In this document: positions 52,046-64,000 of the stretch, piece after piece | How positions within the stretch are numbered: position 1 is the stretch's first letter | Layout: every line of letters begins with the position of its first letter | Assembly: GCA_963809875.1 (NCBI GenBank) | Contig: CAWELC010000005.1 | Location: 152,836 to 216,835 of the forward strand | Direction: 5' to 3' | DNA: 64,000 nucleotides | From: an uncultured delta proteobacterium | GTDB lineage: Bacteria; Desulfobacterota; Zymogenia; Zymogenales; Zymogenaceae | The notes under the pieces: model-generated | What the model was told of the DNA's origin: nothing | Databases searched by the model: none | The model's input: the letters and a program-made list of their open reading frames with translations, nothing else | Made by a program: the position numbers and the translations under genes

Positions 52046-52240
52046 ATCACATACCTCCCTCATCGGATAGAGATTTAGCAGATTATATCGCCCAGGTCTT
52101 CGGAATGCAAGGGTGTCGACTATATTGGTTGTAAAAGGTCGATGATGGTGATACAAACAGACACATTCTCTCACTATTTTCAGAACCATTCCCGAAAATC
52201 ATTGTCATTAACGGTATCCATGTCCTATGGGAGGCCCGTC

Positions 52241-54514
52241 ATGAAAAAGGCAGTCGTCTTTCTCTGTATCCTGATAGCGTCTTATTCCTTAACGGCGTTT
52301 GCCCAGCCGGAGCAGAAGCTTCCCGATCTGCCGGGTGGAGCCGTCACCATCCCCTGGTCGGACTTCAAAGAGCTCATAAAGGGGTTGATGGCCCCACCCC
52401 CGGTTCCTCCGACCCCGCCGGAGCCGCCCGCCGACTATTCGGTGAGCTCGGCGTCCTACGTTGGGAGGATCGAGGGTGAGAGCGCCGTCTTTTCCGCTTC
52501 GTTTGCGGTGACGATCCTCGCCGAAAAGAAATGGGTCGAGGTACCGCTGGTCTCCGATGAGACGGCAGTCTCCAACGTCATGATGGACGGCGTCCCGGTC
52601 ACCCTCGCGGCGCGGGACGGCTCCTATGTTGTCTTCAGCGACAAGCCGGGAAGGCACATCGTAACGCTGAACTTCTACGTCACCGCGGATTCCGGGTCCG
52701 GAAAGAACGCGGTCGATATCCCTCTGCCGCAGGTCCCGGCGTCAACCCTCACGTTTACGGTTCCCAAGCCGGGGCTTGACATCCAAATCACGCCCGCCCA
52801 CTTCAAGAAGGTCACGCCTTCGGGAGGGGGTACCACACTCGAGGCGGTGCTGCCGATAACCGACCGGGCAGTCATCTCCTGGAGTCCTGCTGTGCGCGAG
52901 GAAGCCTCCGGAACGCTCAGGGTCCAGGCCCAGGTGAACACCATCATCTCGGTGGGAGAGGGGATCATGAAAGGGGTCACCACCGTTACGTATGACATCT
53001 CACACGGGACGCTCTCGAGCTTTTCGATCACGATGCCCGCAGACATCGAAATCATCGATGTCTCGGGGGACGCGGTCCGCGACTGGAAGGTCGTCCCGAA
53101 CGGCGGCACCTCGACGATCCTCGTTACCGCCGGGTTTCCCGCCTCCGGCACGACTAGCATCGTGCTCCTGTATGAGCGCAATATGGGCGGGACGACCGCC
53201 GATATCGAGGTGCCCCAGATCGAGGTGAACAACGTAACCCGGGAGATCGGCTATCTCGCGGTGACCGCGTCCACCAAGGTGGGGGTGGAGGAGATCTCGT
53301 CCAAGAACCTGGCGGGCCTGGACAGCACCGAACTGCCCGCCGAGATGGTCTCGGCATCGGAAAACCCGATCCTCTTTTCCTATAAGTACCTCAAGCACCC
53401 CTATGCCCTCAAGCTTGCGGTGGTGACCTACCAGGATATCCCAAGCCTCACCACGGTGGTCACGAAGGCCGACTTTTCATCCCTGCTCACGGTGCGGGGC
53501 GACCTGGTAACCCGGGCGGTCTTCGAGGTCAAGAATAACGTGAAGCAGTTCATGAGGCTTTCCCTGCCCAAGAAGTCGACCCTCTGGAGCGTCTACGTCT
53601 CCGATCGGCCGGTCAAGCCGTCGATGGACAAGGATGGCGCAATCCTCATCCCGCTGGACCGCTCCACCAGAACCGATAGCTCACTCACCTCGTTTACCGT
53701 CGAGCTCGTCTACATCACGGAGACCAAACCCCTCGGCGCGCTCTTCGGCCGCCGGGAATTTGTCGCCCCCGTTATAGACATCCAGACCGACGCCCAGGCG
53801 TGGACCATCTATCTCCCCGAGCGGTTCGCCTACCGGAGTGTTGGAAAAGACATGGAGAAGGCCGCGCCGACCCCCGTGGTAAGTGGGGGGGAGATGGAGA
53901 GCAACGCCCCGGCCACGGCTCCCACCGAGGAGATGACGGTGTCCGACGAGATGTATCGTGATAAGAAGGAGGCGCCTAAAACCCAGATCTACACCGAAAA
54001 GAATATCTACGCGGAGGGACTCTTGTCGATCGGAGGCGGCGCAGGGATGAAAGGTGTGCTGCCGGTGAAACTCGATATCCCCTTTTCCGGCCGTGCGATG
54101 GGTTTTACCAAGGCGATCGTCAGGCCCGGCGAGCTATCGACCGTTGCCATCAGGTATGAGGGCAGGGGGCTCTCGAGCCTGTTCCTTTATCTCGGGGTCG
54201 TCCTGTGTGCCCTCCTGTTTGTCTGCATTATTATCTCGGTACGACAGTCGGTTGGGGCGCGGCACATCGTCATCGAGCCAGGGCTTGCAGCGCTTTTCGT
54301 CTCGTCACTGATTGCGATCATCCTGATATCCGTTTTCCTGATTATGGACGTCGCTGCGATATGGTGGGGGCTTTTCATCGCCATTATCGTCGGCGGCTCC
54401 CTTTTCGTGAGGGACCTGATCGTAAGACTCAAGGAGTCGGCCGAGCGGTCGAAAGCCCAAGGCGTCAGGCAGGAGAAAGAGCGGACGCGGTCGGAAAAGA
54501 AGCATGAGAAATAA
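52241..54514 (+). CDS. Large secreted / C-terminally membrane-anchored protein of unknown function (paralog A)
   Basis: Start MKKAVVFLCILIASYSLTAFA has a signal peptide and a GGGAGG RBS. Motif TIPWSDFKEL, then a Pro-rich PPPVPPTPPEPP stretch. About 620 aa are predicted extracytoplasmic and beta-rich. The C-terminus has 3 hydrophobic helices and a KR-rich tail. Confidence 0.55.
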   Translation: MKKAVVFLCILIASYSLTAFAQPEQKLPDLPGGAVTIPWSDFKELIKGLMAPPPVPPTPPEPPADYSVSSASYVGRIEGESAVFSASFAVTILAEKKWVEVPLVSDETAVSNVMMDGVPVTLAARDGSYVVFSDKPGRHIVTLNFYVTADSGSGKNAVDIPLPQVPASTLTFTVPKPGLDIQITPAHFKKVTPSGGGTTLEAVLPITDRAVISWSPAVREEASGTLRVQAQVNTIISVGEGIMKGVTTVTYDISHGTLSSFSITMPADIEIIDVSGDAVRDWKVVPNGGTSTILVTAGFPASGTTSIVLLYERNMGGTTADIEVPQIEVNNVTREIGYLAVTASTKVGVEEISSKNLAGLDSTELPAEMVSASENPILFSYKYLKHPYALKLAVVTYQDIPSLTTVVTKADFSSLLTVRGDLVTRAVFEVKNNVKQFMRLSLPKKSTLWSVYVSDRPVKPSMDKDGAILIPLDRSTRTDSSLTSFTVELVYITETKPLGALFGRREFVAPVIDIQTDAQAWTIYLPERFAYRSVGKDMEKAAPTPVVSGGEMESNAPATAPTEEMTVSDEMYRDKKEAPKTQIYTEKNIYAEGLLSIGGGAGMKGVLPVKLDIPFSGRAMGFTKAIVRPGELSTVAIRYEGRGLSSLFLYLGVVLCALLFVCIIISVRQSVGARHIVIEPGLAALFVSSLIAIILISVFLIMDVAAIWWGLFIAIIVGGSLFVRDLIVRLKESAERSKAQGVRQEKERTRSEKKHEK

Positions 54515-56498
54515 GATTCTCGCGGCGCTCTGCGTCCTCTTCCTGCTGCCGTTGGCCGCCGGTCAGGCCCGCGCCGAGAAGGGGACACTGCCGCCGATGC
54601 CTGATACGAAGATCACCGTGCCCTGGGACGACTTCGTGAGGATGATGGAGGGGTTAGCGTCGCATCCGGCCCCTCCCGTTCCTCCCCCGCCGACCGACCT
54701 GGCCGTCGGGCGGGCGTCCTACACCATGCGCATTGTGCCGGGCCGGCTCGAGACCGCGGTGACCCTTGATGTGAGGAGTTACGGGGACGGCTGGCACGAG
54801 ATCTTCGTCGCCGGACGGGATACCCCTCTGATCTCCCTTACCGTCGACGGCATTGATGCGGTGACCCTGGTGAAAGACGACGGGGTATGGGCGGCCCTGC
54901 CGGGAGAAGGAAAAAGGACGATCCGGGCACTCCTCGTCACGGAGGCCCCCGATACCCCCGGACCCCACACGGTGGCGATCCCGGGTCCGACCGCGGCGGC
55001 CAGGGAAATCGACCTGAGCTACCCGCGCAATTACACGGACGTGGGGGTCGGCGGGGTGGTCACCGCGTCGATGCCGGGGAGGCTCTCGGCGGTCTTGGCG
55101 GGCGGCGGCAGCATCGAGGTCTCCTATACCGTGGCCGCCGTGGAGAAGATAGAGACCACCGGGAAGAAGGCCACGGGCCCTCCCGTGGTGACCGCGCAGC
55201 TCTTCACGGCCATGGATATCGAAGAAGAGGCGATCCTCCTTTCGGTCCGCATCGACTATGAGGTGAAGAACGGCCCCGTACGGTCGTTTCGGGTGAGTCT
55301 TCCCCAGGGCTTTGACCTCCTGGACGTAAAGGGCGACGGTATCGCCTCCTGGGAGACATCTCAGGACCGCACGGGGCTTACCGCTGCGATCGGTTACGAT
55401 GTTTCCGGCCCCTACTCCCTTTTTCTCTCCTTTGAGAAGGCAATGAGCGACGAGCTTGGCTCGATCGAATTTCCCCGGGTTGTCCCCGCGGGCGCGGAGC
55501 GGTCGACGGGATACGTGACGGTCGTCTCGGGAGGGGGCTTTGAAGTCACCGAGCTCAAGTCAAAGCTCCTCACGCCCCGGGATCCTACCGAGCTCCCGGA
55601 AGGGGTCTTTTCGCTCTCGGCGCTGCCGCCTATACTGGCCTACCGCTTCACCGACCCCCGTTACAGCCTCACGGTGGGGATTCGAAAAGGGGAGGCCCTG
55701 TCGGCGCTTTCGGGCTTTGCCGATTCGGCAAACTCCGTTATCCTCGTGACGGCGGACGGCAAGATGGTCGTCAGGACCAACTACTTCGTGCGAAACAGGA
55801 ACCTCCAGTTCCTCACGATCGTCCTGCCGCCGGAGTCCGTCCTCTGGTCGGCGACGACAAACGGCGTCCCGACAAAGCCGTCCACGGACAAGAAGGGAGT
55901 CGTCCTGGTCCCCCTTCCGATGGGCTCGGGCGGCGCCGACGGGCCGTCCGTGGTCTCCGTCGTTATATTTGTGCCGACACCCACTCTGGGGTGGGCCGGC
56001 CGGCTCTTTCTGCCGCTGCCGCGGCTTGAAATTCCGACCGGCCAGGTAATGGCGACCTTTTACCTCCCGGAGGGTATGAGCTATCTTTCCTTCGGCGGCG
56101 ACATGGAGCAGATCAAATATTTCACGGAGCTGCTCTCACCCGGCTCATCCGAAAGCTTCGTCGAGGAGAACCTGCGCCTGCGTAAATCCGTCTACGAGCG
56201 GCAGGAAGACCTTGAAAACGTCATAAACGAACAGCAGCAGATGCCCGATAAGGGGGGCGCGGGGCTGCCGCCGGCGCCCGAGGGATTCGACCTGCCGCTT
56301 TCGGGGAAGGTCTATCGGTTCGTGAAACTGATAACGATGGGCGAGGAGACGAGCGTAGTCGCCACCTACGTCGATCTGCGCCTCCTCGTCGCAGGCATCC
56401 TGCTCCTGCTGATCGTGGTTGGAGGAGGGGCTCTTCGATACAGGCGGAAGTTACGGAGTATAGTGACCGGCCGAACCGGGGACAGGGATATCCGCTAG
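54504..56498 (+). CDS. Large secreted / C-terminally membrane-anchored protein of unknown function (paralog B)
   Basis: Signal peptide MRNKILAALCVLFLLPLAAGQARA. It has the same ITVPWDDF plus PAPPVPPPP motif order and the same C-terminal TM anchor as paralog A. It overlaps A's stop by 11 nt. Confidence 0.55.
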   Translation: MRNKILAALCVLFLLPLAAGQARAEKGTLPPMPDTKITVPWDDFVRMMEGLASHPAPPVPPPPTDLAVGRASYTMRIVPGRLETAVTLDVRSYGDGWHEIFVAGRDTPLISLTVDGIDAVTLVKDDGVWAALPGEGKRTIRALLVTEAPDTPGPHTVAIPGPTAAAREIDLSYPRNYTDVGVGGVVTASMPGRLSAVLAGGGSIEVSYTVAAVEKIETTGKKATGPPVVTAQLFTAMDIEEEAILLSVRIDYEVKNGPVRSFRVSLPQGFDLLDVKGDGIASWETSQDRTGLTAAIGYDVSGPYSLFLSFEKAMSDELGSIEFPRVVPAGAERSTGYVTVVSGGGFEVTELKSKLLTPRDPTELPEGVFSLSALPPILAYRFTDPRYSLTVGIRKGEALSALSGFADSANSVILVTADGKMVVRTNYFVRNRNLQFLTIVLPPESVLWSATTNGVPTKPSTDKKGVVLVPLPMGSGGADGPSVVSVVIFVPTPTLGWAGRLFLPLPRLEIPTGQVMATFYLPEGMSYLSFGGDMEQIKYFTELLSPGSSESFVEENLRLRKSVYERQEDLENVINEQQQMPDKGGAGLPPAPEGFDLPLSGKVYRFVKLITMGEETSVVATYVDLRLLVAGILLLLIVVGGGALRYRRKLRSIVTGRTGDRDIR

Positions 56499-56656: not shown

Positions 56657-57412
56657 ATGGAGCTCACCATCCTCGGATCGGGAACCATCGTCGTGTCCCT
56701 GACGCGCTGGTCGCCCGCGTACCTCCTGAGGGCATGCGGCAAGACCATCCTTATCGACCTCGGGCCGGGCGCGCTGAGGCGTATGGTGGAGGCCGGCTCG
56801 GGCATCCTCGATATCGACGCGATCTGTCTTTCCCACTTTCATCCCGACCACGTCGCCGACTTCGTGCCGCTCGTTTTCGCCTCCAAATACGCCGTGGGAA
56901 GCTGCCGCGCCCGGGATCTGACCGTTATCGCTCCCCCGGGGTTCGGTGAATTTTACGCGGGTCTCATCGAGGTCTTCGGCGACTGGATCGTACCCGAGGC
57001 TTACCGGCTCGATATCCGGGAGGCCGACGGCTCGATTGTTGACCTCGGGGCCTGTTGTGTAACGACCGTTTCGGTCAACCACAGTCCCGAGAGTATCGCC
57101 TATCGTTTTGAGGGTGAAGGCGCTTCGCTCGTCTACTCGGGAGACACCGACTGGTCCGACGGCCTCGTCACCCTGGCGCGGGGGGCGGACCTCCTTCTCC
57201 TCGAGTGCTCGTTTCCGGACGACATGAAGGTGCCCGGCCATCTGACTCCCTCGGAGGCGGGAAGGCTCGCCCGTGATGCACGCGTGTCGCACCTGGTCCT
57301 GACGCACCTCTACCCCCCGGTGGAAAACGTGGATATCGTATCGATCGCGGGGGCCTCGTTTACGGGCAGGATCACCGTGGCCGAGGACCTGATGGTTATA
57401 CCGGTGGGCTAA
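56657..57412 (+). CDS. MBL-fold metallo-hydrolase (RNase Z/beta-lactamase superfamily)
   Basis: HFHPDH metal-binding motif and downstream His/Asp ligands. 251 aa. Confidence 0.75.
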   Translation: MELTILGSGTIVVSLTRWSPAYLLRACGKTILIDLGPGALRRMVEAGSGILDIDAICLSHFHPDHVADFVPLVFASKYAVGSCRARDLTVIAPPGFGEFYAGLIEVFGDWIVPEAYRLDIREADGSIVDLGACCVTTVSVNHSPESIAYRFEGEGASLVYSGDTDWSDGLVTLARGADLLLLECSFPDDMKVPGHLTPSEAGRLARDARVSHLVLTHLYPPVENVDIVSIAGASFTGRITVAEDLMVIPVG

Positions 57413-57550
57413 ATAGGCCGGCCTTTCGGCGCTTGAGCTTCCGGTTACCGGGATAGGACGAGATAAATTCACGCACCCGCTGTCACACGTCAGAGGCCGG
57501 CGCGGGTCACCGGCGTCGGCTCCGGGGTAGGTCGCCCGCTTCCCGGAAGG

Positions 57551-59134
57551 CTAATCCGCCTCGGGGGGGTCTTTGGGAGAATATTTTTCCACCAGCGCGT
57601 ACTTCGTCACCTTGCCGACGCTGTTACGGGGAAGCGTCGTCGTGAAGATGATCCGACCCGGCACCTCGTTCGGCGAGAGCCGCTCCCGACACCAGTCGAC
57701 CAATACCCGGTCGCTCGTGTCCTTCCTCGGATCCCTTACCACTACCGCCACCACCCGCTCTCCCGATGGGTAGTCGGGCAAACCGATCACCGCGGCGTCC
57801 ATAACGCCCTCATGGGACGTGAGCACCTCTTCAATGCCCGGAGCGAAGACCGTTCCTCCCGCCGTCACGATCATGTCTTCTCTCCTGCCCAGGAAATAGA
57901 GACACTCGTCTTCGTCCAGGCGGCCCCAGTCACCGGTGTAGAACCAGCCGTCACGATAGGCCGCCCTGGTCCTTTCCTCGTTCTTAAAATATCCCGGGGC
58001 GGCGGTGAGCGCCCGACAGATGATCTGGCCGATCTGACCGGTCGGTACGTCGCGGCCCTTCTCGTCGACGACGCGCAGCTCGGTCCCGAAGCAGCGGGTC
58101 CCCACGGAGGCGGGGTTGGCGCGCTTCTGATCCGGTCCCGCGTGCGCGATGATACCGGCCTCCTGCAGGGCGTAAAACTCGTAGATGTTGGGGCAGATTC
58201 GCTCCCTCACCTCGCGCTGCAGGGCGACGGGAAAGGGGCTGGCCGAAAACGCGATTCCTCTCAGCGACGAGAGATCGTATCGGTCCAGCTGCGGGATCTT
58301 CAGCAGGACCGATGCGACGATAGGAGTCCAGAACGTTATGGTGACGCGCTCCTCTTGGATGATCTTGAGGATTCCCGAGAGGTCGGTAACGTCAGGCTGA
58401 AACAGGACGTTTCGCGCACCGACCAGAAAGCCGGCGCCGTACCACCCCAGGCCCGCCCTGCCGTAGAGCGGAAAGACGGTCAGAATCACATCGGTGCCCG
58501 TGAGGTCGTGCATCGCCGTGAAAAGGCCCAGCGCATTGAGCCCGTTGCCGTGGGTAAGGGGGAAGACCTTCTGCACGCCGGTCGTGCGGGAGGTAGTGTC
58601 GATGCACTGGATGTCGTCGGAATCTACCTCAATAAAGGGAAGCGTGGCGGGACAGCCCCAAATCAATTCTTCATAGGGCAGGGCGGTTTCGGCCGTCTGT
58701 TTGCCGATACAGATGAAGGTCTCGATATCGGGCAGCGCCTTTCTGACCTCGGCCGCGGTCGGGGCGTAGATGTCCTCAAACAGAAAGAGCCGGGCACCGA
58801 CGAACCTGAGATATTCGACGATCTGATCGGGGCCGAACCCCCACTGGAGGGGCACGGCGACGGCTCCGATCTTAACGAGGGCGCCGTATATCTCTCCGGC
58901 CTCGGCCCGATTCCTGCACTGAAAGGCGCAGTGGTCGCCCTTTTGTATCCCCAGCGAGAGCAGGGCGTTGGCCAGACGATTCATCCGCTCGTTCACCTCG
59001 CGGAACGAGAAGCGCCGGCCCGTCATCGAGCAGAAGACGGCCTCACGATCCCGATAGCGGGCGGCCGCGGTCTTGGGGAGGTTTGACTGGGTTACCTGCG
59101 ACGCCCGAAAGAGTGATCGATCGATCCGGCTCAT
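57551..59134 (-). CDS. AMP-dependent synthetase/ligase (acyl-CoA synthetase / adenylate-forming enzyme)
   Basis: Adenylation-superfamily motifs (TSRTTGVQK..; YGRAG..; TGD.GR.DEDG; C-terminal lysine motif PRNSVGKV). Start taken at the ATG at 59134, which overlaps the peptidase stop (ATGA). Confidence 0.75.
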   Translation of the reverse strand: MSRIDRSLFRASQVTQSNLPKTAAARYRDREAVFCSMTGRRFSFREVNERMNRLANALLSLGIQKGDHCAFQCRNRAEAGEIYGALVKIGAVAVPLQWGFGPDQIVEYLRFVGARLFLFEDIYAPTAAEVRKALPDIETFICIGKQTAETALPYEELIWGCPATLPFIEVDSDDIQCIDTTSRTTGVQKVFPLTHGNGLNALGLFTAMHDLTGTDVILTVFPLYGRAGLGWYGAGFLVGARNVLFQPDVTDLSGILKIIQEERVTITFWTPIVASVLLKIPQLDRYDLSSLRGIAFSASPFPVALQREVRERICPNIYEFYALQEAGIIAHAGPDQKRANPASVGTRCFGTELRVVDEKGRDVPTGQIGQIICRALTAAPGYFKNEERTRAAYRDGWFYTGDWGRLDEDECLYFLGRREDMIVTAGGTVFAPGIEEVLTSHEGVMDAAVIGLPDYPSGERVVAVVVRDPRKDTSDRVLVDWCRERLSPNEVPGRIIFTTTLPRNSVGKVTKYALVEKYSPKDPPEAD

Positions 59135-59577
59135 GACCTCATAGTCTCCTGACCGAACAATGAGAGAGAACGTGCGCGTATCCACCGCGCGGCCTTCCCC
59201 AGCCTTCCCTTGACGATTCCTGCGGTCAGGTTTCTCCGCGAAAGGGCGGCCGTCACGCCCCCAAAGCGGGGCCGGACGAGACGGCGGTCAGAACGGGAAA
59301 CCATGATGACCCTGAGGATGCCCCCGGGAGGGACGGCGGTGGGTGGGTCCGGGTAGGTGAGATTGTCTCCCTTGGTGACGATGACTGGCGGACTCACGCT
59401 CCGGTCGACGCCGATTATCCTGTGGACGACCAGCTCCTTCTTTCGGGGGACGCAGACGATATCGCCGATTGCGCAGTCGGCGGGCCGGACGGTATCAAGG
59501 ATCAGGGTATCGCCCGGGCGGAGTGCCGGGTACATGCTGTATCCCTGAAAAGCGATGCGTCGGTAGTCCATCGTCAT
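59131..59577 (-). CDS. S26-family signal-peptidase-I-like peptidase (short, no obvious TM anchor)
   Basis: Start trimmed to MTMDYRR. The Ser box is GYSMYPAL. The Lys/Arg box is GDIVCVPRKKELVVHRIIGV, matching the SPase I/TraF arrangement. Confidence 0.55.
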   Translation of the reverse strand: MTMDYRRIAFQGYSMYPALRPGDTLILDTVRPADCAIGDIVCVPRKKELVVHRIIGVDRSVSPPVIVTKGDNLTYPDPPTAVPPGGILRVIMVSRSDRRLVRPRFGGVTAALSRRNLTAGIVKGRLGKAARWIRARSLSLFGQETMRS

Positions 59578-59614
59578 ACGTTCATGTGCGGCAAACGGGA
59601 CGGGCGCGGCCGAA

Positions 59615-59869
59615 TTAGGGCGCCTTCCCGTAGTTGCAGCGCACCGCGGTGGCGCCGTCGCGGCAGTTTTGCGGCGTGGCCGAAGGGCCCTGTGCGCACG
59701 CAACCGTCGCCTGGGCTCCGCCGGAGCACTGGCTTGTCGCCTGGGCGCCCGTGGTGCACTGTCCGGTGGCCTGTCCTCCCGTAAGGCATTTCGACTGGCC
59801 CACCGCCTGGGTGTAGTCCACCTGCAGATCGACTATTTTCGGGGGCGCATACGGCTTTTTTGTTTTCAT
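59615..59869 (-). CDS. Candidate RiPP precursor peptide A (84 aa): leader MKTKKPYAPPKIVDLQVDYTQAVG + 6-Cys core with decapeptide repeats
   Basis: ATG at 59869. The core is QSKCLTGGQATGQCTTGAQATSQCSGGAQATVACAQGPSATPQNCRDGATAVRCNYGKAP. Cys spacing is 10/10/10/11/9. Each Cys is preceded by an Ala-Thr dipeptide 4-5 residues upstream. Confidence 0.6.
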   Translation of the reverse strand: MKTKKPYAPPKIVDLQVDYTQAVGQSKCLTGGQATGQCTTGAQATSQCSGGAQATVACAQGPSATPQNCRDGATAVRCNYGKAP

Positions 59870-59981
59870 CAGGAAATCACCAAAAAATTTATTACGGACG
59901 TAAAGGTATAAAAGACAATTGTCACATGATCCGCGGTCGCCGTCCCGGTCCTGTGTGAGCGGGACACCGACGCATCCTCCA

Positions 59982-60206
59982 TTATCCGGATAGTATTGAG
60001 TGGGGTGCGGCGCCATGAATGCATGTCGACGACGTCGCCTTATGACCCATGCTGCATTGATTGTTCGCGCTGTTTCCGCGTGAGCACCGGGCCGCCGCGC
60101 CCTGGCCGGTCGCGCACCGCGACGCGCCCACCGCCTGGGTATAGTCGACCTGCAAATCGATGATCTGAGGCGGCTCATACGGTTTTGTGGGTTTCTTATC
60201 CTTCAT
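59982..60206 (-). CDS. Candidate RiPP precursor peptide B (74 aa): near-identical leader, divergent 4-Cys core
   Basis: ATG at 60206 with a GGGAGA RBS. The leader is MKDKKPTKPYEPPQIIDLQVDYTQAVG. The core is ASRCATGQGAAARCSRGNSANNQCSMGHKATSSTCIHGAAPHSILSG (Cys spacing 10/10/11). Confidence 0.55.
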   Translation of the reverse strand: MKDKKPTKPYEPPQIIDLQVDYTQAVGASRCATGQGAAARCSRGNSANNQCSMGHKATSSTCIHGAAPHSILSG

Positions 60207-61157
60207 GAGGCATCTCCCTGAAGAAAGGGGTGGGCTTGAAATCCCTGGTAAATACCAGCGTCCACGAGGGTTGGTTTTGACACAGCTGCCCTGCGATGCC
60301 GAACGCCCTGAGCGCCGCGTTGCGGCACATGTACCGAAAGAAATGGATGTGATTGGATAACAACATCGCCATGGCCCGGCCCGGCGACAGATCGGCGATC
60401 CGGTCTTCGTTGCCCTTTTCGAGGAAGAGGATGCGCCTGAGAGGAACCGGGCCCGCGACTTCCGCCCCGGGGCGATCTGTGAAAAAGGGGTCGGGAAGAG
60501 AGAGAACGTCCCGCCGGTTTGCGAACACCAGGACCCGTCGTCGGAAAGCACCGCCCCCGGATCCGCCGCGGCTATTGTGCTCTTACCTGCGCCCGAGCTT
60601 CCGACGCAGAGATAGCCCGCGCCGTCCAGGACCAGCGACGCGGCGTGGAGCATCAGTGCGCCGAAATCCGGCGCGCAGACCGCCAGCAGTCCCTGCAGCA
60701 CAGGCGTCAGCGGTGACTCACCGTCCGAATCTTCCTCGACCCTCACGAGGGCCTCCGCCTGTCGGAGCCGGTGATCCACCACCACGAGAAAACAGGGGTG
60801 TGGAATGACCGAGACATCCCCCGAATCGAGATCAGCCAGAAGCGGCAGAGACGCCCCCCCGTCCTTAGCCTGCCGTTTCCTTCCCTGGTTTCCGAACCAT
60901 ATCCTGTTAAAAGGGAACCTCTGTTCGATCGTTTGCGCGATGCGACGGGTGTGTGCAAGGGCTTCAGGTGACAGTATCTCATCCCAGGACTCCCCAACGG
61001 CCCGCCTGATCGACAGATCAATGCCGACTCGATCCCGCCGATGCGTTAAGTGGGACGTATGACCTTTCAACCCACGGCCGGCGTCATTCATCAGCTTACC
61101 CGCAGGATCGTTGACGAAGGTGACCTGTACCGATACCCCTCCGACCGTGACGATCAT
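60196..61157 (-). CDS. P-loop protein resembling HPr-kinase C-terminal domain-like kinases, apparent frameshift near 60525
   Basis: Walker A VGSSGAGKST. The C-terminal part continues in ORF 60196..60528 (VFANRRDVLSLPDPFF...) in another frame. ATGA overlap with the upstream rSAM gene, and its stop overlaps the precursor B start. Confidence 0.45.
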
Positions 61158-62242
61158 CTTTCCACCATCCTGCCGGGCGGGAAAAGACCCTTTTCATAGG
61201 CTTCCTCGCATACCCAGTGCGGGGCGCTCAGGCTTCCCGACAATACGTACGCGTCAGCCCGACATGAACCAAGACAGATTCCTGCCATGAAGCATCGGCC
61301 GCATATTCCCTCCATTCGACGGGGTACAATCTCTCGAAGTCGCCCGAGAACGTGACTGCTTTTCCACACCTGGGCCAGGTCGTCGGTGCGGATGTTGCCC
61401 ATAGTAAGCGACCGCTCTTCCCGTCCGATACCGCAGATCGAGATATCACCGCCGGCCAGAATGCCGATAATGTTCAGTATATAGCACTGGGCGTTTCTTC
61501 CGTCAAAGAGGTGCGAGATCGGTTTGAGGGCCGAAGGGACGGTAAAGAATGTATCTATGCCGTAGCTCGCGGCCAGCTCCCCTTCCACCCACGCACAGAG
61601 GGCCAGCAGCTCTTCAACCGGCAGGGTCTGCCCCTGATCCTTCAAGCTCCCGCCCCTCCCAACGGGGGTGACGGGGTTGATCTTCACGGAACGCGCCCCG
61701 AGCCGTTGGGCCATCTCGACCAATCCCTCGATGTCCGCGGCGTTGTCACGAACGAGGCTCATGATCACCTGAACGGCGATACCCTCTGCCGCCAGAAACT
61801 CAACGCCAGCGGCCGCCCTATTCAGGGCCCCATCTACCCCCCGGAAGCTATCATGGAACGACGCCCGGTGACTGTCAATGCTCACGCTTACGGAACGGAT
61901 GCCATGGTCTTTCAGGAAGGCGGCGGCCTTCCGGTCGATCAGTGTCCCGTTGGTCTCGATCGATGCAGAAAGACCGCTGACGTCCAGCAGCCTGACAATG
62001 TCGAAAACGTCTTCGTTCAGAAACGGCTCCCCCCCGGTGAGCTTGACGCGGGAAAGTCCCAGGGGCCGGGCCGCATCGATGATTTTTTTGACGTCTGCCG
62101 TCGTCAGACGATCACGTACGGCTTCCTGTTGGGGAGTGAAGCTGGGGGATATCCAACAGTGGGCGCAGCGGAGATTACATCCTCCCGAAAGGTACAGGTA
62201 GGCGTGGATCAGAGGATATGCGGGCGTCCTATCGGCTCGCAT
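61154..62242 (-). CDS. Radical SAM / SPASM-domain peptide-modifying enzyme 1
   Basis: Start MRADR at 62242 (GAGGAGGA RBS). CNLRCAHCW (CxxxCxxC) radical SAM motif. C-terminal Cys-rich auxiliary-cluster region (CGIG..., CGRCFMAGICLGSC). Confidence 0.8.
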   Translation of the reverse strand: MRADRTPAYPLIHAYLYLSGGCNLRCAHCWISPSFTPQQEAVRDRLTTADVKKIIDAARPLGLSRVKLTGGEPFLNEDVFDIVRLLDVSGLSASIETNGTLIDRKAAAFLKDHGIRSVSVSIDSHRASFHDSFRGVDGALNRAAAGVEFLAAEGIAVQVIMSLVRDNAADIEGLVEMAQRLGARSVKINPVTPVGRGGSLKDQGQTLPVEELLALCAWVEGELAASYGIDTFFTVPSALKPISHLFDGRNAQCYILNIIGILAGGDISICGIGREERSLTMGNIRTDDLAQVWKSSHVLGRLREIVPRRMEGICGRCFMAGICLGSCRADAYVLSGSLSAPHWVCEEAYEKGLFPPGRMVER

Positions 62243-63428
62243 ATGAATCCTCCTCTTCACGGAGCCTGAGGCAACAGGACGGGTCCCGGGCGAGCGTCGT
62301 GCCGGAGGCGGCCAGCGCCGACGCGGCGCACCCCCCCGTGCAATAGGGGGCATACCGGCAGTCGGTGCAGGTAGGAAGGCTCGCGACCGGGGTAACGAAA
62401 CGCGCCCGAAATTCCTGAAACAGAGGCGATTTCCTCCATATCTCGTCAAGGCCGGTATCCAGGACGTTGCCTGCCACAAGCTCGGTGAGGCGGTCGCACG
62501 GAGTCGCAAACCCATCGGGTCGGATCGCGCATTCCGTGCGCAGCGCGCCGCATCCCGAAAGGCAGTTTATGTCCGCGTCGGCGGGGTTCTCTTTTTCGGC
62601 ACATACCGAGCGAATAGTCGCAAAGATGTCTTCTATTTCGAGGAAGGTGCCGGAGATCGTGGGATTGGCCTCTTTCAGTTCCCTGAGAGACGCCGTGACC
62701 TCGCGTCGTTCTTCGGCGGAGAGACCGAGCTCGCCCCGGTTATCATGGCCCCGACCGAGCGTGATGAGCTCATTGAATTTCACGCCCCGAATGCCGAGCT
62801 CCCCGGCCAGTCTCACCACCTCTTCCAGCCGCCGAAAGTTCAGGCGAGTCACCGTGCAGTAGGCCGAGACCCGCCCGATCTGCCGGACCAGATGTCCCAG
62901 TCCCTCCTCCATCGCCCGGAATGCCCCGGGTCCCCGCAGGGCGTCGTGGACTTGTTCCGTGCCCCCGTCCAGGCTCACCATGACATCGGAGAGCTTTTCC
63001 CCGTATCTTCGGAGACGCCCGGCCGCCCCCGCGTCGATGAGCACGGCGTTCGTGTTAAGAGAGAAGCGGATCGGCTTTGAGAAAAGATGGTCGAGGATGG
63101 TAAAGATATCCTGCCGGGCGAACGGCTCTCCCCCGCTGATCTTGACCCGAAATACTTTAAGATCGGCGATATGGTCGATGAACGAAAGCCATTGGGAGGT
63201 GGTGAGGTCCGGCCCGTAGGAGAGGCCGTCTCCGTAGACGGCACAGTGGCGGCAGGCCAGGTTGCAGCGGGAAGTGATGGAGATAAAGAGTGACAGCGGC
63301 GCCCGCGGTATCCTCGGGGGGACGGGGTATATCTCTCCGGCTGCGGTGGCTGCTTTCTGCCTGCTCACGATAGTCTCTCCCTGTTGTTGGATCCGGGCAG
63401 AAGTCCCCGTCCGGAAGGCCTTACGCAA
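62229..63428 (-). CDS. Radical SAM / SPASM-domain peptide-modifying enzyme 2
   Basis: CNLACRHC radical SAM motif. C-terminal SPASM-like Cys cluster (CLSGCGALRTEC..PCD..CTDCRYAPYCTGGC). It overlaps both neighbours, which suggests translational coupling. Confidence 0.8.
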   Translation of the reverse strand: MRKAFRTGTSARIQQQGETIVSRQKAATAAGEIYPVPPRIPRAPLSLFISITSRCNLACRHCAVYGDGLSYGPDLTTSQWLSFIDHIADLKVFRVKISGGEPFARQDIFTILDHLFSKPIRFSLNTNAVLIDAGAAGRLRRYGEKLSDVMVSLDGGTEQVHDALRGPGAFRAMEEGLGHLVRQIGRVSAYCTVTRLNFRRLEEVVRLAGELGIRGVKFNELITLGRGHDNRGELGLSAEERREVTASLRELKEANPTISGTFLEIEDIFATIRSVCAEKENPADADINCLSGCGALRTECAIRPDGFATPCDRLTELVAGNVLDTGLDEIWRKSPLFQEFRARFVTPVASLPTCTDCRYAPYCTGGCAASALAASGTTLARDPSCCLRLREEEDSYASR

Positions 63429-63930
63429 CGATCAGCCCGCGATCCACCAGCTCCTTGACGAAGGACTCCACGTCCCGGCCGACCTGCTGTGCGTCAACAT
63501 CCGAAAAATGCGCAGCCACCGCGTGGATGATATCGGCAAGGCTCTTTTTCCCGTCGATCTGTCGCATCACCATGAGCCCGGTCTCGTTGATCGCCGAAAG
63601 CTTGTCGCCAACGGGGTCGAATATAAAGGCGCCGTCGTCCTCCTCGCGGATGACGGTCTCCCTCTTGATTTTGGGCGTGAACGAACGATCAGGCGCCATG
63701 GTGAAGACCCCCTCTCTTATGAGCTTGCGACAAATCCTCTTCACGTCCCCGGCTACGGCCCTGTCTTTCTCACCGAATTCCCGGGCAATCCCCCGCACAA
63801 CCGCGTTGAGGTTTCGTGTGCCGTCGGTAAGTCGAATGACCGCCGCGGCGGTATGGTTGAGGAGATAGACGTTCCGGTCGCCGGTGTCAAAAAGGACAAG
63901 CTCGTCCTGGTCGAATTCGGATGCGACCAT
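63421..63930 (-). CDS. PqqD-family peptide chaperone (RiPP recognition element), tandem double domain
   Basis: 169 aa. Two consecutive ~80-aa units each match the PqqD pattern (..YLLNHTAAAVIRLTDG.RNLNAVV.. and ..SAINETGLMVMRQIDGKKSLADII..). Confidence 0.65.
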   Translation of the reverse strand: MVASEFDQDELVLFDTGDRNVYLLNHTAAAVIRLTDGTRNLNAVVRGIAREFGEKDRAVAGDVKRICRKLIREGVFTMAPDRSFTPKIKRETVIREEDDGAFIFDPVGDKLSAINETGLMVMRQIDGKKSLADIIHAVAAHFSDVDAQQVGRDVESFVKELVDRGLIVA

Positions 63931-64000
63931 CCGGCGATTGAGCAGACAGACGCTGCTCTCCGAAAGGGCCGGCCGCCGCTCGGAAAGACGCCGCAGGACA

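Follow-up and report, generated by a model that had tools for sequence, protein, structure and literature searches.

Cassettes of the SynChlorMet (SCM) type are catalogued in NCBIfam and have been defined by bioinformatics alone, their defining feature being the pairing of two radical S-adenosylmethionine (rSAM)/SPASM enzymes, ScmE and ScmF. The cassette is widespread, occurring in many anaerobes, yet no paper, product, chemistry, role or experiment concerning any SCM cassette turned up in the literature searched. Two-rSAM systems have also been characterised among the sactipeptides, namely thuricin CD with its enzymes TrnC and TrnD (PMC12093266) and ruminococcin C (PMC8188230). Here we analysed a stretch of 64,000 nucleotides (the window) from an uncultured delta proteobacterium of the Zymogenaceae (GenBank assembly GCA_963809875.1, contig CAWELC010000005.1), at one end of which two overlapping genes encode the rSAM/SPASM enzymes rSAM1 and rSAM2. 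An initial annotation had regarded two such maturases acting on one precursor as uncommon among characterised thioether RiPPs; given the catalogued and characterised pairs above, the combination is not a new one. We conclude that rSAM1 and rSAM2 are very probably the ScmE-like and ScmF-like enzymes of a divergent SynChlorMet-type operon for the maturation of a ribosomally produced peptide with post-translational modifications (RiPP), and that they probably act non-redundantly on the same repeat core. The identity and architecture of the operon are well supported.

Both enzyme genes lie within positions 61154–63428, as the initial annotation had it, and are intact; both products pass the Pfam gathering cut-offs for Radical_SAM (68.7 bits for rSAM1 and 80.1 bits for rSAM2, cut-off 29.5) and SPASM (42.1 and 27.2 bits, cut-off 21.5). 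The rSAM1 gene (62229–63368, minus strand, 379 residues) begins at a GTG codon at 63368, 7 nucleotides past a GGGAGAG Shine-Dalgarno sequence and inside a longest open reading frame (ORF) of 63428–62229; its length is that of its orthologues, and the public gene call P0121 is identical (100% identity, 100% coverage). The rSAM2 gene (61154–62242, minus strand, 362 residues) begins at an ATG codon at 62242 with the Shine-Dalgarno sequence GAGGAGGA, again identical to a public gene call (P0001). The two genes do overlap, by 14 nucleotides (62229–62242), as they do in L001 and L003, which together with L005 are the closest-relative loci used for comparison. The longest ORFs would imply an overlap of 287 nucleotides, which is not the real one; the longer ORF, up to 62515, extends the rSAM2 frame upstream of the ATG. 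A gene for a protein with two PqqD domains, that is, a double RiPP recognition element (RRE), lies directly upstream, in agreement with the earlier statement that the enzymes follow an RRE gene.

The distant similarity of the two enzymes was confirmed: they align with 29% identity over 362 columns (E = 6e-28). Each retains the three-Cys SAM cluster in a CxxxCxxC motif (CNLACRHC in rSAM1 and CNLRCAHC in rSAM2) and a GGEPF motif, and each has the full set of superfamily features (PF04055 and PF13186; CxxxCxxC, GGE and a seven-Cys SPASM motif). Different N-terminal regions and different auxiliary Cys cluster layouts had also been claimed for the pair, and neither claim held. Ten Cys columns (CxxxCxxC followed by C, C, CxxCx5Cx3C and C), three for the SAM cluster and seven for SPASM, were 96–100% conserved among both the 75 ScmE-type (E-type) and the 86 ScmF-type (F-type) sequences that we compared, and the conserved SPASM cysteines number seven, not eight. 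C22, C26 and C29 of rSAM2 and its seven SPASM cysteines were invariant in alignment A1, and the extra cysteines of rSAM1 occurred in no more than 15% of the E-type clade. The N-terminus of rSAM1 is longer by only about 13 residues, which are of low confidence in its AlphaFold2 model, and neither the alignment nor the models revealed a fused RRE in rSAM1 or rSAM2.

We compared the encoded proteins with the 18,950 models of NCBIfam, in which the SCM cut-offs are 400 bits for ScmE, 400 for ScmF, 100 for ScmD, 125 for ScmC and 35 for ScmA. The top match of rSAM1 was ScmE (TIGR04250; 203.5–203.7 bits) and that of rSAM2 was ScmF (TIGR04251; 347.8 bits), each under its cut-off of 400, with cross-scores of just 104–108 bits. 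Among the partner proteins, the ScmC-like protein (32.6 bits to TIGR04249 after frameshift correction) and the two precursor peptides (13.9 bits, E = 0.049, and 13.7 bits to ScmA, TIGR04252) likewise had SCM models as their top matches; for the PqqD protein, ScmD (TIGR04248; 58.9 bits) ranked third after PqqD (TIGR03859; 66.5 bits) and a lasso PqqD model (60.3 bits). Canonical loci from a Syntrophobacteraceae metagenome-assembled genome (MAG; L004), Methanogenium (L025) and Chlorobium (L029) scored 579–611 bits for ScmE, 539–591 bits for ScmF and 309 bits for ScmC, and they group in the same E-type and F-type clades as the window enzymes. Proteins 73–78% identical to the window enzymes carry the Joint Genome Institute (JGI) names 'ScmE' and 'ScmF', and of the named relatives a Candidatus Zymogen... 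MAG, formerly assigned to the Deltaproteobacteria, is the closest. Every one of the 75 E-type proteins reaches E ≤ 1e-45 with ScmE (TIGR04250), whereas no other family does so with more than 7 of them (MftC with 7, WgkB with 5 and AhbD with 2). The broad SCM architecture is also present in the window, with two distinct PqqE-like rSAM/SPASM genes, a PqqD gene, a ScmC-type gene and Cys-repeat precursors on one strand.

To see how far the pair is conserved, we searched genomes, one for each species, with a ScmF-type alignment as query, then called ORFs and classified them with phmmer. This yielded 80 loci spanning Desulfobacterota, Chloroflexota, Chlorobi, Nitrospirota, Omnitrophota, Aminicenantes, Verrucomicrobiota and methanogens, of which 49 were well flanked (3 kb or more of sequence on each side). 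On a neighbour-joining tree confined to the 75 E-type and 86 F-type sequences, the two types formed two clades that did not mix, each of them spanning bacteria and archaea. Identity was about 45% inside each clade and about 25% (18–31%) between them. The common fold, the shared Cys layout and the 29% identity of rSAM1 and rSAM2 might suggest recent, functionally redundant paralogues, but this explanation is hardly credible: the enzymes fall in separate, anciently diverged clades across two domains of life, and each has a different curated family as its best match. We rejected it on the basis of the two-clade tree.

The two types were also closely associated in the genome. In 46 of the 49 well-flanked loci, no more than 5 kb separated an E-type gene from the F-type gene, and 45 of 69 loci had the E-type gene immediately upstream and on the F-type gene's strand; PqqD genes accompanied the enzymes in 44 of the 49 well-flanked loci and ScmA-like peptides in 35. 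Pairwise distances of the two types were correlated across 69 loci (r = 0.81). The clean clades, conserved pairing and co-divergence together indicate an ancient co-inherited pair rather than recent paralogues. Such coupling also speaks for an obligate heterocomplex of the TrnC/TrnD kind, a reading that overlaps with our own and differs just in the division of work: the two enzymes would modify the peptide only together, with the radical chemistry of one strictly needed and one chemistry resulting. The 46 of 49 conserved pairs, the translational coupling through the 14-nucleotide overlap, the correlated distances, the presence of two precursors as in thuricin CD and the single Cys donor per repeat all accord with it. 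Against it, the retention of SAM-cluster and SPASM cysteines at 96–100% in both clades argues that both enzymes are catalytically active, and in L009, L013 and L053 the E-type and F-type genes are split between divergently transcribed units that both include a PqqD gene. We consider such a complex a possible, if rather improbable, arrangement.

Departures from the one-pair pattern were seen in some loci. In three well-flanked loci (L015, L023 and L026), an F-type gene was found with no E-type gene within 5 kb; PqqD genes were present in L023 and L026, and no ScmA-like precursor was detected in these three loci. The F-type enzyme may also act alone on a different substrate. In L010, L021, L045 and L077, a span of 10 kb holds two E/F cassettes, or additional F-type genes that have precursors of their own, which suggests that the system has been duplicated and has diversified locally.

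Two precursor peptides are encoded downstream of the enzymes in the window. Precursor 1 (60206–59982, minus strand, 74 residues, 4 Cys) is ScmA-like and consists of the leader KPYEPPQIIDLQVDYTQAVG followed by C-x-x-G-x-x-A repeats, with the sequence MKDKKPTKPYEPPQIIDLQVDYTQAVG-ASRC ATGQGAAARC SRGNSANNQC SMGHKATSSTC IHGAAPHSILSG. Precursor 2 (59869–59615, minus strand, 84 residues, 6 Cys), also ScmA-like, has the sequence MKTKKPYAPPKIVDLQVDYTQAVG-QSKC LTGGQATGQC TTGAQATSQC SGGAQATVAC AQGPSATPQNC RDGATAVRC NYGKAP; its leader is nearly identical to that of precursor 1, and its orthologues are present in L003 and L005. An iterative search recovered 64 related precursor ORFs beside the enzymes of other loci. 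The family, seen in the window, L003, L005 and about 60 other loci, shares a K-YE-P-P-x-[LI]-x-[DL]-L leader and a core of tandem units of about 10 residues, C-x-x-G-x-x-[A/P], the commonest Cys-to-Cys spacing being 10. Across these 64 ORFs, with a median of 6 Cys, Gly occupies the third position after Cys in 82% and Ala or Pro the sixth in 54%. The final Cys is followed by Gly at the third position in 58 of 64, and the C-terminal tail is 6–8 residues long in 46 of 64; this pattern suggests, at the level of sequence, that the functional unit comprises a Cys plus the six residues downstream of it.

The precursors bear directly on how the two enzymes might divide their work. Two precursors with different cores (4 and 6 Cys) beside two enzymes could point to a division by substrate, with one enzyme for each precursor. 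Yet loci with one E-type and one F-type gene had one detectable precursor in 39 cases, two in 5 and four in 1; L003 and L005 pair both enzymes with a single precursor; and the leaders of the two window precursors are nearly identical. Because single precursors predominate in loci with one enzyme of each type (39 versus 5 and 1), this division is very unlikely, and we rejected it. The initial annotation had assumed that both enzymes act on one precursor. Its essential part stands, in that distinct roles on the same peptide fit the comparative genomics, although the window itself contains two precursors. Comparison of these loci thus supports two predicted non-redundant roles on the same peptide.

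The PqqD gene occupies 63421–64000 on the minus strand and encodes a tandem PqqD (double RRE), ScmD-like peptide chaperone, with Pfam PqqD scoring 90.1 bits over two stretches that represent two domains. Its reading frame is open up to base 63999, and the protein is 61% identical to residues 14–203 of the 205-residue L001 orthologue; the open frame and an alignment that begins only at L001 residue 14 place the start of the gene beyond the window edge. PqqD-domain arrangements were examined in the window and in L007, L008, L012, L014, L027, L041, L069 and others. Domain clustering separated N-type and C-type PqqD domains into distinct lineages, the N-type always occurring alongside the C-type. 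They are fused in the window and form two adjacent genes in other loci, and some E-type enzymes (480–505 residues) bear a third, N-terminal PqqD domain. We also considered a scheme of one RRE domain per enzyme and rejected it, as in the split loci the N-type and C-type domains both precede the F-type gene and the E-type gene has its own PqqD.

Structural comparison was used to relate the enzymes to those of known function. The AlphaFold2 models were of high confidence (mean predicted local distance difference test scores of 91.0 for rSAM1 and 91.6 for rSAM2) and adopted SPASM-enzyme folds. Foldseek placed rSAM1 nearest to SuiB, SkfB, anSME, CteB and PqqE, and rSAM2 nearest to SkfB, SuiB, BlsE, anSME and PqqE. 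Both models were about equally close to SkfB, SuiB, anSME, CteB and PqqE, with template-modelling (TM) scores of 0.6–0.74 at 17–22% identity, so the comparison confirms the SPASM fold and leaves no chemistry assignable. By sequence, the best Protein Data Bank (PDB) match of rSAM1 was PqqE (E = 1.8e-18) and that of rSAM2 was BlsE (E = 1.9e-12, core domain only), with matches to SkfB and CteB at only E = 1e-10 to 7e-08. Sactisynthase and ranthipeptide models fell short as well (AlbA 83.9 bits against 850; StsB 122.6 and 111.6 against 625), as did PapB (NF047865) on rSAM1 (69.7 bits against 340). The NCBIfam, PDB sequence and fold comparisons therefore place neither enzyme with the characterised sactipeptide or ranthipeptide synthases, and both the thioether class and the two different crosslink chemistries proposed in the initial annotation are assumptions.

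All genes between 63999 and 57551 lie on the minus strand, in the order PqqD, E, F, C and two precursors, followed by a peptidase and a ligase gene. The same order of PqqD, E, F, C and precursor genes is found in L001, L003, L005, L006, L008 and L014. The ScmC-like gene (60196–61157), which encodes an HprK/PEPCK-type P-loop protein, overlaps the rSAM2 gene by 4 nucleotides (ATGA), and both this overlap and the 14-nucleotide overlap of the enzyme genes are kept in L001 and L003. In this assembly it is split by a one-nucleotide deletion within 60440–60490, and tblastn with the L001 and L003 orthologues located the frame switch at the CCCCGGGG run, at about 60465. Joining the frames gave a protein of 320 residues, as in L001. 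HprK_rel_A scored 17.2 bits on the corrected protein, whose orthologues carry PF27840 (ScmC); a comparison with PDB gave no significant match, only a weak PEPCK/P-loop signal. The split is probably a homopolymer error of assembly, given that the long-contig relative L003 also has fragmented neighbouring genes; alternatively, the gene may be a real pseudogene.

Two further genes close the minus-strand run. An S26 (SipW/archaeal-type) signal-peptidase-like protein (59131–59577) scored 51.9 bits to TIGR02228 (sigpep_I_arch; cut-off 51.85), and its gene holds the same position in L001, L003 and L005; this S26/SipW-like protein is a candidate leader peptidase. The final gene (57551–59185) encodes an AMP-forming acyl-CoA ligase-like protein, which scored 215 bits to Pfam AMP-binding and 181.5 bits to TIGR03098 (exosortase-A-associated ligase; cut-off 592). 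It follows the peptidase gene in L003 and L005 and is absent in L001, and its membership of the cassette is uncertain. A promoter and terminator scan of 57000–64000 returned counts no higher than the shuffle level. Further along, on the plus strand, two paralogous large proteins without a Pfam match (790 and 664 residues) are encoded at 52142–54514 and 54504–56498. These paralogues are kept beside the cassette in L001 (13737–18000) and fragmented in L003, with an RNase Z/MBL-fold gene (56657–57412).

The region upstream of the cassette lies beyond base 64000 of the window, and its context is taken from L001 (1–8202), L003 (1–8197) and L005 (1–8168). There, the cassette is immediately preceded, on its own strand, by an NTP_transf_5 gene and a Wza/Wzc/Wzy_C-type polysaccharide export set, whose members are Poly_export, a GNVR/Wzz kinase, Wzy_C, GT4, an AAA_22 ATPase and an HD protein. 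Exopolysaccharide (EPS) genes also adjoin the cassette in L009, L014, L048, L053 and L065. This setting inside EPS export loci could be taken to mean that one of the enzymes is not a peptide maturase and acts instead on a small molecule, as AhbD and NirJ do, or on a sugar nucleotide, as BlsE does, in connection with the polysaccharide genes. Agreeing with this are AhbD (171 bits for rSAM2 and 140 for rSAM1) and NirJ-type models among the next-best NCBIfam matches, BlsE as the best PDB sequence match of the rSAM2 core domain, and the JGI label 'AdoMet-dependent heme synthase' on some E-type relatives. These matches are, however, far under their cut-offs (e.g., 171 against 500). PqqD genes (44 of 49) and ScmA-like peptides (35 of 49) are tied to both enzyme types, including in loci without EPS or heme genes, and the folds match the peptide- or protein-acting SkfB, SuiB, anSME and PqqE at least as well as BlsE. 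A non-peptide substrate for either enzyme is very improbable indeed. Heme and cofactor models in general scored below cut-off (AhbD 171 and 140 bits against 500; MftC 156 and 123 against 265; PqqE 112 and 90 against 381), and no heme, PQQ or mycofactocin genes were found in the window locus.

The proposed working of the SynChlorMet-type operon can be outlined as follows. From the known role of the PqqD family, the PqqD/RRE protein would bind the conserved leader (K-x-YEPP-x-I-x-DL...AVG). Judging by their motifs, each enzyme would reductively cleave SAM at the CxxxCxxC cluster and would hold two auxiliary Fe-S clusters on the seven SPASM cysteines. Both would then work, in non-redundant roles, on a shared repeat core, (C-x-x-G-x-x-[A/P]-x-x-x)n, where the likeliest outcome is a small Cys-S-to-carbon ring in each repeat. 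The second enzyme would introduce another kind or set of modifications, or would serve as an obligate partner in the way that TrnD serves TrnC (PMC12093266). Finally, the S26 peptidase would cut off the leader after the A-x-G junction. Local Cys-to-carbon rings are, by analogy, our tentative first choice for the primary modification; the Cys-rich repeat cores and the seven SPASM cysteines are circumstantial pointers to thioether bridges in the product.

A more elaborate outcome can also be envisaged, in which each enzyme would place a different modification on every repeat of about 10 residues, one being a local thioether ring and the other a second radical modification, for instance epimerisation or the formation of a C-C or C-O link. 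The result would be a polycyclic 'ladder' peptide of a new RiPP class, and in this subgroup it would undergo further tailoring and reach the cell envelope. The envelope link comes from the embedding of the cassette in the polysaccharide export operon of the relatives; as for tailoring, ScmC and NTP_transf_5 are candidates for a phosphorylation or glycosylation step, and the AMP ligase for an acylation. We regard this outcome as unlikely.

Several considerations weigh against the assignment that we favour, that of a functional SynChlorMet-type operon with two non-redundant maturases. All five SCM models were matched below their curated cut-offs, so that under NCBI's own rule the locus is not an equivalog. 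Shared species history accounts for part of the mirror-tree correlation between the two enzyme types. If the frameshift in the ScmC-like gene is real, the operon may not be fully functional. As no SCM experiment turned up in the literature searched, thioether formation is an analogy with other Cys-rich rSAM RiPPs, and since each repeat has a single Cys, the donors would have to serve two thioether synthases at once.

As an instance of a catalogued architecture, the locus has its greater value as a target for radical-SAM peptide chemistry, and the cassette is well suited to studying how a repetitive Cys peptide is shared between two SPASM enzymes. The precursor family defined here, marked by a common leader and C-x-x-G-x-x-[A/P] repeats, and the divergent subgroup with a double RRE and EPS links should help in choosing constructs for reconstitution.

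How, then, does the locus compare with characterised systems? TrnC and TrnD have their own N-terminal RRE domains and install hairpin Cys-to-C-alpha bridges in a Firmicute bacteriocin. Thuricin CD and the window both encode two rSAM/SPASM enzymes and two Cys-containing precursors, which makes cooperative action plausible. Unlike in thuricin CD, a double-PqqD protein apart from the enzymes provides the RRE in the window, and the core consists of tandem repeats. Freyrasin, in turn, contains six CX3D motifs. Both it and the window peptides have a repetitive core with one Cys per short repeat, a likeness that suggests one small local thioether ring per repeat. The PapB/freyrasin system differs in having a single enzyme, and the acceptor motif in the window, C-x-x-G-x-x-[A/P], has no conserved Asp or Glu; PapB links Cys to Asp or Glu residues (PMC9413430).

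The PqqE/PqqD and MftC/MftB systems share with the window a short rSAM-SPASM enzyme without a fused RRE and a stand-alone PqqD-family chaperone, and MftC is the second-best NCBIfam match of rSAM1 (156 bits). They differ in that one enzyme converts one short peptide to a cofactor by C-C bond chemistry, whereas the window encodes two enzymes and Cys-repeat peptides. A further parallel concerns the accessory genes rather than the rSAM enzymes. Pairs of kinase and nucleotidyltransferase-like proteins tailor some lasso peptides, as with PadeK and PsmK/PsmN (PMC9266682). Similarly, the cassette has a P-loop ScmC-like protein (with weak HprK-related matches, far below cut-off) and, in relatives, NTP_transf_5 beside a PqqD-type RRE; unlike lasso systems, it contains no lasso cyclase or protease genes. 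PsmN may belong to PF14907 and PadeK may be HprK-like, and by analogy the lasso-tailoring parallel is a lead for ScmC and NTP_transf_5.

The closest correspondence is with the SCM cassette itself. The five component types, their order (PqqD, E, F, C and precursor), the E-type and F-type clades and the precursor design of a leader followed by C-x-x-G repeats are all alike. Besides the scores below every curated cut-off, further differences set the window and its relatives apart: the PqqD protein fuses two domains (N-type plus C-type) where that of SCM is a single domain of about 95 residues; genes for an S26 peptidase and an AMP ligase are additions of the window subgroup; and the relatives of the window have NTP_transf_5 and an EPS export gene set upstream. 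Since its architecture is that of this catalogued, experimentally uncharacterised cassette, the window locus represents a divergent new member of the SynChlorMet type.

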